Of a DNA stretch of 64,000 nucleotides, positions 39,854 through 45,777 are shown in pieces (position 1 is the stretch's first letter; each line of letters starts with the position of its first letter). The notes under the pieces were generated by a model. That model searched no databases and was not told where the DNA came from. It saw nothing but the letters and a program-made list of their open reading frames with translations. The position numbers were made by a program, and so were the translations under genes. Source of the stretch: Gammaproteobacteria bacterium (GTDB lineage: Bacteria > Pseudomonadota > Gammaproteobacteria > UBA4575); the NCBI GenBank assembly GCA_965221955.1, contig CBDCTA010000028.1, positions 1-64,000 on the forward strand, read 5' to 3'.

Positions 39854-39880
39854 GTTATTTAAATTTTTATTCTCAATTAT

Positions 39881-39918
39881 TGCATCATCTTGGTGCTCAG
39901 ATGCAACATGATAGTGCA
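39881..39918. promoter_or_regulatory. tandem NtrC-like enhancer sites
   Basis: TGCATC-ATCTT-GGTGCT (39881-39897) and TGCAAC-ATGAT-AGTGCA (39902-39918). Confidence 0.7.
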
Positions 39919-39992
39919 GCTTCAATTGCGCACTAGCTAAAGTCTTTACCTTTTCAATTATAAGTATCTAATAACATTGAAATAGTAGGTAC

Positions 39993-40008
39993 TGGCATAA
40001 CTTGTGCA
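39993..40008 (+). promoter_or_regulatory. sigma54 -24/-12 promoter of cynS
   Basis: TGGCATAACTTGTGCA, exact GG-N10-GC spacing. Confidence 0.8.
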
Positions 40009-40042
40009 TTGAATTGTTGTTATTTGTTATGGAGGAAATGAA

Positions 40043-40528
40043 ATGAACGAAATAATGACAGAACCAGTATGTGTGGTAAATAAAGCCATGTCCAAAGAAG
40101 AAATGACCGATTTAATCATTTCTGCAAAAAAAACAAAGGGGCTTTCATGGAAATCTATAGCAAACGAATTGAATGTTGGAGAGGCTTGGATTGCCTCAGC
40201 CTGCCTTGGAATGAATAGTACATCAGAGGTAATTGCAAATAAACTTTGCGATCTCCTCGAATTAGACGACAGAGTATGCACCCTGCTACAAGAGTACCCT
40301 CATAAAGAATGGGCTAAAGCAATCCCTCAAGACCCAGTTATCTATCGACTTTATGAAATTGTCGGAGTATATGGTGACACTATTAAAGAAATCATTGCTG
40401 AAAAATTTGGCGATGGAATTATGAGTGCTATTGATTTTTCAATGGACATCGACAAAGAGGAAAATCCAAAAGGCGATCGTGTTGTGATTACACTTAATGG
40501 TAAATTTTTAAAATATACATCGTGGTGA
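40043..40528 (+). CDS. cynS: cyanate hydratase (cyanase)
   Basis: PQDPVIYRLYEIVGVYG, EKFGDGIMSAIDF, GDRVVITLNGKFL. Confidence 0.96.
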   Translation: MNEIMTEPVCVVNKAMSKEEMTDLIISAKKTKGLSWKSIANELNVGEAWIASACLGMNSTSEVIANKLCDLLELDDRVCTLLQEYPHKEWAKAIPQDPVIYRLYEIVGVYGDTIKEIIAEKFGDGIMSAIDFSMDIDKEENPKGDRVVITLNGKFLKYTSW

Positions 40529-44235: not shown

Positions 44236-44264
44236 AAAAAAAAGGCCGCCAATATAGGGCGGCC
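44236..44264 (-). terminator. intrinsic terminator
   Basis: GGCCGCC stem (44244-50/44258-64) followed by U8 on the minus strand. Confidence 0.85.
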
Positions 44265-44332
44265 GAATCCAGGAGGAGTCGAGAATAACAACATGTCAAA
44301 TAGAGGATATTTGTATCATGTTGAGAGGCTCG
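44236..44332 (-). ncRNA. candidate sigma54-dependent small RNA
   Basis: Bounded by a sigma54 promoter and a U8 terminator; internal hairpin with UCCUC loop; CUCCUCCU motif; 5' end estimated. Confidence 0.65.
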
Positions 44333-44342
44333 TATATTAATA

Positions 44343-44358
44343 AGCATAATTGATGCCA
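44343..44358 (-). promoter_or_regulatory. sigma54 -24/-12 promoter
   Basis: Minus strand TGGCATCAATTATGCT (GG-N10-GC); IHF-like TTTCAGCCACTTA at 44378-44390. Confidence 0.75.
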
Positions 44359-44676
44359 ATATTTACAATTCCTTTATTTTCAGCCACTTATTAAAAGTAA
44401 GACGTAAAATTGTCGGTAATAACCCTATGATTTACGACAATTTTGGGCACTTTTGTGACAATTTATCGCATAAAAATTGCCCAAGTACTCTGATTCATAT
44501 AGGTTTTTGAAGTTTTATCATTACCAAAAAGCTTAAATTTTAAGCAAAAATTGGGATTTATTTAGAGATTCCGGCCTAAAGCGGGCTTTTCTATTTATAC
44601 TGATTGATTGAGCATTTGTTTTTGTATCTATGTACACCATAGATATTCGAGCACATAAAAATAATAACTTTGACCA

Positions 44677-45777
44677 ATGATTGAATCCGTATACCAAGCC
44701 CTGTTGGACAGTAATGAGTTGGTCGAAGACCCTAACCAAAAAAGTGTGATTCAAGCATTACAGATTCTTCATGATGAGCTAAGTGCCGACAACTCAGAAG
44801 ACTCCACCATTATCGATCGCTTTACGACATTTTTATCGCGAAAATCCAATACACGCAGCATCCAAGGTCTTTATATATGGGGCGGCGTAGGACGTGGCAA
44901 AACATTCTTAATGGATCTGTTTTTTTCTAATCTACACTTTCAAGACAAATTACGCTTACACTTTCATCGTTTTATGGATCAAGCCCATAAAATGCTAAAG
45001 AACCATCGCGACAAACCTGATCCACTTAAACTTGTTGCGAAAGAGTTTTCTGAGAAAGCCAAAGTTTTATGCTTTGACGAGTTTTTTGTGAACGATATTG
45101 GCGATGCTATGATTCTTGCAGGTTTGCTCGAAGGCTTATTTGAAAATAATGTGGCACTCATCGCGACTTCCAACGTAGAACCAAGCTTACTTTATAAAGA
45201 CGGCTTACAGCGTGAACGATTTCTACCAACCATTGATTTACTTCAAAAACATACAAAAGTGATTCATTTAGAAGGTGAAACTGATCATCGATTTGAATTT
45301 TTACAGAGTAATGACGTTTATAACTCCCCTATTGATGATAATTCACGAGATTGGCTAAAGCATAGTTTTCTTAACCTTGCGAACGAGCGGGTTGAACAGT
45401 CTTGGGAAAAAATTAAAATTAATGACCGTGAGATACAGACTATTCAACACACAGACACCGTAGCTTGGTTTGATTTTAAAGAAATCTGCGATGGACCACG
45501 CAGTAGTGCCGATTACATTGCTATTGCCAAGCAATTCAACACAGTTCTGATATCACATGTACCTATTCTAGAAGGTAAAGATGATCAAGCCAGAAGATTC
45601 ATTACTATGGTAGATGAATTTTATGATCGAAATGTAAAACTCATTTTGTCAGCAGAAGCTGCACCAGATAAACTATATGCCGGTTCGCGCTTAAATGCTG
45701 AATTTGAACGAACCACAAGTCGGCTCACAGAAATGCAGTCACATGAATATTTAGAAAAACAACATCATCCAGATTAA
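44677..45777 (+). CDS. zapE: AFG1/ZapE ATPase
   Basis: GGVGRGKT, HFHRFM, CFDEF, ARRFITMVDEFYD. Confidence 0.93.
   Translation: MIESVYQALLDSNELVEDPNQKSVIQALQILHDELSADNSEDSTIIDRFTTFLSRKSNTRSIQGLYIWGGVGRGKTFLMDLFFSNLHFQDKLRLHFHRFMDQAHKMLKNHRDKPDPLKLVAKEFSEKAKVLCFDEFFVNDIGDAMILAGLLEGLFENNVALIATSNVEPSLLYKDGLQRERFLPTIDLLQKHTKVIHLEGETDHRFEFLQSNDVYNSPIDDNSRDWLKHSFLNLANERVEQSWEKIKINDREIQTIQHTDTVAWFDFKEICDGPRSSADYIAIAKQFNTVLISHVPILEGKDDQARRFITMVDEFYDRNVKLILSAEAAPDKLYAGSRLNAEFERTTSRLTEMQSHEYLEKQHHPD

Follow-up and report, generated by a model that had tools for sequence, protein, structure and literature searches.

A predicted sigma-54-driven small RNA with a conserved anti-Shine-Dalgarno tract between zapE and nagZ in an uncultured gammaproteobacterial order

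Related small RNAs and the zapE-nagZ locus

Small RNAs (sRNAs) that depend on sigma-54 and an enhancer form a known class with Qrr, GlmY, NrsZ and CrcZ as members. Here we describe a candidate of this kind from an uncultured gammaproteobacterium, in a 64-kb stretch of DNA (positions 1 to 64,000 of contig CBDCTA010000028.1, assembly GCA_965221955.1; the whole stretch is called the window below), where a predicted 97-nt sRNA gene lies on the minus strand in the gap between zapE (44677-45777, plus strand) and nagZ (44193-43132, minus strand). Among the described systems, Qrr1-5 of Vibrio are presented in the relevant passages of their source as LuxO- and sigma-54-dependent sRNAs of ~100 nt with a dedicated upstream activator site and sibling copies (bioRxiv 10.1101/2021.07.01.450815), and NrsZ of Pseudomonas aeruginosa is given in passages of PMC4253122 as an sRNA induced by NtrB/C under nitrogen limitation. 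The members of RF02278 (Betaproteobacteria_toxic_sRNA), among them ncS03, ncS05, ncS27 and ncS62 of Burkholderia cenocepacia, are characterized in passages of PMC5688073 as double-hairpin RNAs with unpaired CU-rich stretches complementary to ribosome-binding sites (RBSs), and the same passages describe such stretches for NmsR of Neisseria. Several copies of the RF02278 RNAs occur, and their over-expression slows growth, according to passages of PMC5688073 and PMC4603805.

Judged from its sequence, the window RNA would work like these anti-RBS and sigma-54 sRNAs, yet it appears to belong to none of their families, and we regard it as a new family of a familiar regulator type. No Rfam family matched the whole 64-kb window at gathering score, in keeping with a first-pass annotation of the window, made from its letters alone, that had proposed an unannotated RNA here; a permissive Rfam scan of the loci of seven relatives returned nothing at E<=0.01. 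The closest model was RF02278, which reached 29.4 bits at 44237-44281 (23.1 bits for the variant of one reduced genome, G020) and so fell short of the gathering score of 50 that defines membership. The 5' CUCCUCC stretch, GGAUUC linker and terminator hairpin of this model align to 44281..44237, whereas its first hairpin is absent from the window RNA (1 nt where the model has 17), which has a different, longer 5' stem-loop. As far as those passages describe RF02278, the two are alike in being short, in their unpaired CU-rich stretches complementary to RBSs and in having several homologous copies in some genomes. However, the window RNA has a sigma-54 promoter, none being described for RF02278 in the passages of PMC5688073 and PMC4603805, and its host belongs to an uncultured gammaproteobacterial order instead of the Betaproteobacteria.

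The other systems differ more widely. NrsZ, which is RpoN-dependent, follows the same logic as the NtrC reading that we favour below, but it shows no sequence or Rfam match to the window RNA, its genomic place and architecture are different, and the window RNA is without glnA-type NtrC sites. Qrr shares the size, the sigma-54 logic, the upstream site and the sibling copies, whereas the seed sequence differs; no Qrr match appeared even at E<=10 in a 651-nt Rfam search, and the best of the seven sigma-54 activators of the source genome scored 368.7 bits with the LuxO model against a cut-off of 800, which places the RNA outside Qrr/LuxO. CU-rich unpaired stretches as in the window RNA are likewise present in NmsR and NgncR_162-163 of Neisseria and in MmgR (alpha-r8) of rhizobia, and mmgR/suhB was the third-best Rfam match (21.6 bits against a cut-off of 41). 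These RNAs come from other phyla or classes than the host of the window RNA, and their regulators and targets presumably differ from its own.

Conservation, structure and distribution of the RNA

The main evidence for the gene is its conservation. Of 24 other genomes from the family, 19 gave a BLAST match to the 276-nt region, as against none of 16 genomes from other families. In the resulting 20-sequence alignment the promoter TTGGCAY-N5-RTGCT is invariant, the following ~10 nt are variable and carry indels, and near-invariance then runs from GAGCC, the expected sigma-54 start, to the terminator loop, so that the invariant RNA begins ~12 nt past the promoter between a variable spacer and variable flanks. 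Mean column identity was 89% over the 97-nt RNA (19 complete RNAs) versus 65% over the 346-nt region with the upstream flank. The RNA delimited by conservation, covariance model and fold extends from a predicted +1, placed by the position of the -12 element, to the end of U8 (44332..44236; this and all further features of the sRNA gene are on the minus strand), and ends 43 nt ahead of nagZ, which has the same orientation.

For the 97-nt transcript the minimum free energy (MFE) is -33 kcal/mol, whereas shuffled sequences average -15.1 (z = -6.7), and none of 200 shuffles equalled it. The fold reproduces the stems and loop of the first-pass annotation: both MFE and consensus folds contain stem-loop 1 (44289..44323), with an outer helix CAACAUG/CAUGUUG, an inner helix CAAAUA/UAUUUG and the loop UCCUC (44307..44303). 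At its 5' side lies a largely unpaired pyrimidine-rich motif, GCCUCUC (44323..44329; GCCUCAC in genus g7), invariant in 19 of 19 orthologues. At its 3' side follows the proposed seed, a single-stranded 24-nt tract UUAUUCUCGACUCCUCCUGGAUUC (44265..44288) whose columns are invariant or nearly so in the 19 orthologues and which is unpaired in MFE and consensus folds save for a weak 3-bp helix; it contains the anti-Shine-Dalgarno core CUCCUCCU at 44278..44271. The RNA closes with an intrinsic terminator, GGCCGCC-N7-GGCGGCC plus T8 (44264..44236), seen in the sequence and by covariation as a 7-bp GC stem with a 7-nt loop and U8, just where a GC stem and U8 had been read before nagZ.

A covariance model was built on the 19 complete orthologous RNAs. 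Across its 38 matches, 93.3% of cells were paired versus 83.4% in column shuffles, with 38-57% in slid controls, and both-side changes occurred in 18 of 23 pairs; in stem-loop 1 they affected four of seven pairs of the outer helix and all six of the inner one. The terminator had both-side changes at 7 of 7 pairs across the family and 99.2% of its cells paired. It weighs against this support that the pair counts come from an alignment fitted to the model and that the sequences are kin. Only the unpaired tract and the 5' motif GCCUC(U/A)C are kept in all clades, and the core CUCCUCCUGG is retained in g7, in the reduced g7 genomes and in G203, a genome outside the family. Two anti-Shine-Dalgarno seeds had been proposed at the outset, and one of them holds: CUCCUCCU is kept across the family, whereas the loop UCCUC is kept in the window's clade only and not in g7, g11 or G203. 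No conserved open reading frame (ORF) was found on either strand across the orthologues, and a plus-strand 15-codon ORF, named earlier as the possible alternative, is cut to 3-4 codons in many of them.

The gene was judged to stand above chance because of this conservation, the promoter match alone being weak evidence, and a real small RNA gene between zapE and nagZ is in our opinion highly probable. The comparisons support a previously unannotated, non-coding and independently terminated RNA gene and show its boundaries, type of promoter, structure and distribution; that it is transcribed we infer from them.

Matches to the model (31-124 bits) were obtained in 36 of 56 genomes and 7 of 11 genera of the family, which makes up the whole order (the order-level search covered the same 56 genomes), so the conservation of the nagZ-zapE intergenic region in relatives, suggested earlier as a check, was borne out. 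The carriers comprise 14/14 genomes of g1, 2/2 of g9, 15/16 of g7 and the single genomes of g2, g6, g8 and g11, and the model search found no match in g3 (0/13), g5 (0/3), g10 (0/2) or g4 (0/1). The genera without the RNA retain nagZ and the zapE-nagZ gap, and none of the 17 inspected nagZ loci lacking a BLAST match had a -24/-12 match within 600 nt upstream. The g7 loci retain zapE and nagZ as neighbours, with protein identities that have fallen to 48% and 54%, and the 24-nt tract is unchanged. Among 149 other families of the class, sampled with one genome each, only G203 matched (65.8 bits); its copy has its own -24/-12 promoter and sits upstream of nagZ (54% identical), the other neighbour not being zapE. 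The G203 copy (L224:1476-1600, G203:C7) has two identical anti-Shine-Dalgarno motifs, CGACUCCUCC, the second in the loop of the 5' stem-loop.

Sibling copies were seen in a few genomes. G001, G009 and G015 (loci L139 = G001:C1:983500-990200, L041 and L042) have extra copies of the 3' ~80 nt only, consisting of seed and terminator without a sigma-54 promoter, and G041 has a second model match at G041:C9:468753-468850. The full copy of G001 adjoins zapE, with two partial copies between it and nagZ; all three share one terminator loop and are separated by inserted genes, including those for a ThsB-like TIR protein and a DUF3455 protein. No integrase was seen among the genes inserted between the G001 copies, and a sigma-70 scan found no promoter directly upstream of the sibling copies. 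From its sequence, the arrangement gives the impression of islands having inserted into the sRNA gene at its 3' end.

The close association with nagZ raises the question of whether the RNA is a cis-acting leader, its sigma-54 promoter being the nagZ promoter and its hairpin an attenuator that sets read-through into this peptidoglycan-recycling gene. The shared strand and the short distance to nagZ agree with that, as do the position of the RNA directly upstream of nagZ in 12 named nagZ loci, in g7 and in G203, where zapE is not a neighbour, and a simple scan that found no separate nagZ promoter. However, the terminator is strong, U8-tailed and kept by covariation, the full sigma-54 copy of G001 lies 3.4 kb from nagZ with other genes intervening, nagZ and the gap persist in genera that lack the RNA, and the conserved part is an unpaired anti-Shine-Dalgarno tract instead of an alternative-pairing switch. 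A leader is improbable on this evidence, and some read-through into nagZ may come on top of a trans function. The 24 invariant unpaired nucleotides exceed the need of a short seed, and in some orthologues a frame of 7 to 22 codons starts from the AUG in the stem, so that the RNA might titrate a protein or encode a micropeptide instead of pairing with RBSs. Yet this frame has 7 codons in the window and 22 in some relatives, is absent in many and is without a Shine-Dalgarno sequence of its own; there is no repeated protein-binding motif such as GGA in the RNA, and the invariant tract complements a Shine-Dalgarno sequence. We consider titration or a micropeptide very improbable compared with a trans-acting sRNA that pairs with RBSs.

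The sigma-54 promoter and its candidate activators

The sigma-54 type -24/-12 promoter TGGCATCAATTATGCT is present at 44358..44343, as first read. None of the 20 aligned orthologues departs from its GG and GC elements or from their spacing, and both recur in g7, g11 and G203. A degenerate -24/-12 pattern matched the window twice, where 0.64 matches were expected, and two matches were also reached by 14 of 100 shuffles. The source genome and the five relatives checked encode rpoN; with the conserved -24 GG and -12 GC at the right spacing, the locus has what is expected of a sigma-54-dependent sRNA promoter, and its sequence makes sigma-54 dependence very probable.

Between enhancer and promoter lies the IHF-like site TAAGTGGCTGAAAA (44377..44390), which the first-pass annotation had also recognized; its TAAGTnnYTGAA is conserved in the window's clade, and g7 has a counterpart, TAAnnnnTTGATT, at the same place, a predicted site that we take to agree with the IHF consensus. 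The upstream enhancer block ATAAATTGTCACAAAAGTGCCCAAAATTGTCG (32 bp, 44435..44466) is near-invariant in 18 window-clade sequences, the conserved form being ATAAATTGTCACAAATGTGCCCAAAATTGTCG, and contains two TTGTC(A/G) half-sites 21 bp apart, centred ~ -80 to -110 from the -24 element. A related block occurs in G203, and g7 and g11 have a variant, TTGGCAA-N4-TTGCCG followed by GGCAA-N5-TTGCCAC. The upstream inverted repeats read earlier as activator sites do exist in the window (44406..44484): I1 has 15-nt arms of 87% identity (44406-44420 with 44430-44444) and I2 12-nt arms of 92% (44443-44454 with 44473-44484). Their outer arms, however, are not conserved in the 20-sequence alignment, which makes the repeats specific to the source lineage; the inner arms alone overlap the conserved block, and only 44466..44435 can be retained. 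In the source genome the enhancer 30-mer, the double TTGTC spacing and the dyad each occur once or little more often, so that no regulon could be derived from them.

The source genome has seven sigma-54 activators: NtrC (727.6 bits against a model cut-off of 558.6), PilR, encoded in a pilS-pilR-pilA cluster, a FleQ-like and FleR-like pair, an NtrX-like protein and two orphans. The orphans were set aside as not common to the carriers (EBP5 has orthologues in four genomes of the genus only, EBP6 has none), and the NtrX-like protein as being without the GAFTGA motif. The enhancer-binding protein had been left unnamed in the first reading, which is still fair, and the field is now narrowed to NtrC or PilR.

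NtrC is favoured by elimination, because it is the only activator common to every carrier, with an orthologue (63-93% identity) in 36 of 36. In six carriers (G043, G046, G051, G054, G055 and G020) the NtrC query found no other activator at E<=1e-60; a single PF00158 protein (E<=1e-20) was found in each of G055 and G020, and both genomes retain rpoN. In the reduced genomes G020, G043 and G054 a family-derived NtrC matrix scored highest at -111 to -113, with 8.0, 9.0 and 17.5 bits (95th and 99th percentiles of the background in this test, 6.2 and 10.1). Several observations weigh against NtrC. Sites of the glnA type are not in the enhancer: of the 28 sRNA upstream regions scored with a matrix built from 25 glnA-region sites, only 3 exceeded the 95th percentile of the background, their hits being scattered in position, and in the source genome this matrix scored 3.6 at the sRNA promoter versus 14-23 at glnA, cynS and two other promoters. 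A search with the NtrC consensus, allowing up to 4 mismatches, gave no consistent site. Of the 20 genomes that lack the RNA, 17 have NtrC as well, and therefore it does not explain the distribution of the RNA. The NtrC-only genomes are draft metagenome assemblies, in which an activator may be unassembled, and in the window's clade the two best hits of a matrix derived from pilA are the two conserved half-sites 21 bp apart. On balance, the case from sequence for NtrC, and hence for nitrogen limitation as the signal, amounts to an even bet.

The same sRNA could instead be activated by PilR, in which case it would, in the window's clade at least, be part of the type IV pilus regulon and be induced together with pilin. 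The source genome has pilS-pilR-pilA, and the pilA palindrome TGACAA-N3-TTTGTCA, ~120 nt upstream of the -24 element, is conserved in 10 of 10 genus genomes inspected. At the enhancer half-sites, hits of the pilA matrix pass the 95th background percentile in 17 of the 19 orthologues and the 99th percentile in 10, and TTGTCAC or its complement stands at -240 to -40 of only 3 of 73 sigma-54-like sites in the source genome, namely those of the sRNA, pilA and a promoter beside glnA. Moreover, G001, G003 and G005 have NtrC, PilR and an NtrX-like protein without GAFTGA as their only activators, and a PilR orthologue was found in none of the 20 genomes without the RNA. On the other hand, no intact PilR orthologue (E<=1e-120) was found in 10 of 36 carriers, which are eight g7 genomes, including the one-contig G050, together with G007 and G019, and the PilR-less G055 and G051 share the g7 enhancer with PilR-bearing g7 genomes. 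The pilA site of g7 is GTGACAA-N4-TGTCAC, whereas its sRNA enhancer is TGGCAA-N4-TTGCC; in g7 and g11 alike the pilA sites keep TGAC/GTCA and the enhancer GGCAA/TTGCC, so the test of co-variation expected for PilR was negative. The pilA matrix also scores the source-genome enhancer only 5.5, with 234 sites above 6 genome-wide. Phyletic elimination, which points to NtrC, and motif likeness in the window's clade, which points to PilR, are thus in conflict; we hold PilR to be unlikely and keep NtrC as the preferred activator.

Some features of the pil loci were observed in passing. In the one-contig genome G019 (G019:C1, minus strand, L137:1216-3018), pilR breaks off near residue 237 and continues in frame into pilC (T2SSF domains), with pilS upstream of the fusion and a prepilin peptidase gene downstream; judging from the sequence, the remainder of pilR was apparently lost by deletion together with pilA and pilB. 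In G019 both the sRNA and its enhancer remain intact. The pilin promoter has TGGCAY at -24 and GT for GC at -12 (TGGCAYGATATCTGTAT) and is conserved in 10 of 10 genus genomes (L123:6560-6700, G000:C29, minus strand; L127-L135, L197-L202). A perfect palindrome lies a few bases past the pilR stop codon and overlaps the stop in g7.

Two other sigma-54 promoters provide a contrast. A second promoter of this type in the window, TGGCATAACTTGTGCA (39993-40008, plus strand; region 39880-40528), would drive the gene of a 161-residue cyanase (40043-40528; Pfam Cyanate_lyase and CYNS_N) that lies 4.3 kb from the sRNA. Some 90-115 nt upstream of this promoter are TTGCATCATCTTGGTGCTC, for which the family NtrC matrix gives 16.4, and, read by eye, another NtrC-like dyad. 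By its sequence, this locus is to all appearance a textbook nitrogen-regulated unit, in contrast to the non-canonical enhancer of the sRNA. Divergent from glnA there is a conserved sigma-54 promoter, TGGCAT-N5-CTTGCT (G000:C22:244000-244350; L185:245-446; L136:7500-7760). Associated with it are an upstream box of the TTGTCAC type and the dyad GACAA-N4-TTGTC, and behind it come a hairpin and a hydrophobic ORF of 39 residues (MGVSTDVFTTVYIVW...) that has a strong RBS and matches no Pfam family. Of the 13 genomes inspected, 11 had this promoter; G050 and G020 did not.

Proposed mode of action and significance

Considering all of the above, the explanation that we find best is a sigma-54-driven, trans-acting anti-RBS sRNA with NtrC as its likeliest activator, to which we assign a probability of roughly 0.6. 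In the mechanism that we infer, sigma-54 RNA polymerase would bind the -24/-12 promoter, and an enhancer-binding protein ~80-110 bp upstream, most likely NtrC, would be brought over by an IHF-induced bend and open it. Transcription would end at the GC hairpin and U8 before reaching nagZ, and the sRNA of ~97 nt would expose its invariant CU-rich tract between the 5' stem-loop and the terminator. This tract, complementary to Shine-Dalgarno sequences, would pair with the RBSs of selected mRNAs and block initiation, probably with the assistance of Hfq. The anatomy is that of an Hfq-type, RBS-occluding sRNA because CUCCUCCU is a Shine-Dalgarno complement, the seed is unpaired, the intrinsic terminator is U-tailed and hfq was found in the source genome, and on these features anti-RBS pairing is the probable mode of action. 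The best Rfam matches, RF02278 and mmgR, although below threshold, are anti-RBS sRNAs too and add to the case.

Target prediction speaks against the proposal to some extent, since in the source genome alone it gave no coherent set. Predictions came from a k-mer complement scan, from duplex energies computed for three unpaired segments over 3,224 candidate start regions and from the co-fold energy gain, and the 21 top candidates were functionally unrelated (L25, FtsZ, cytochrome c, L,D-transpeptidase, urease, a porin and others), several being mis-called internal starts. The glnA and pilA leaders, compared with the seed by eye only, showed no extended pairing.

A broader and more tentative scheme, drawn from the sequences and in our estimate unlikely as a whole, is a translation brake under nitrogen starvation. 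NtrC would act through a second, non-canonical class of enhancer with TTGYC half-sites, the RNA would be a distant relative of the RF02278 type, and its gene would serve as an integration site for defence islands. The TTGYC class would then be common to the sRNA promoter and that of the glnA-adjacent 39-residue membrane peptide, and distinct from the NtrC boxes of glnA and cynS.

The present analysis adds a well-delimited and strongly conserved candidate regulatory RNA to an uncultured gammaproteobacterial order, with a covariance model, promoter parts and a clear seed in hand. The six carriers that appear to have NtrC only, set against an enhancer unlike the NtrC sites of these genomes, make a tractable question of how enhancer specificity evolves. 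Should the sub-threshold similarity to RF02278 be due to shared ancestry, RNAs of the 'toxic small RNA' type would extend beyond the Betaproteobacteria; if it is not, the RNA would be one more sRNA of a common design that joins a sigma-54 promoter to an anti-Shine-Dalgarno sequence. Were the translation-brake scheme true, it would supply a physiological signal for the poorly understood 'toxic' sRNA family.

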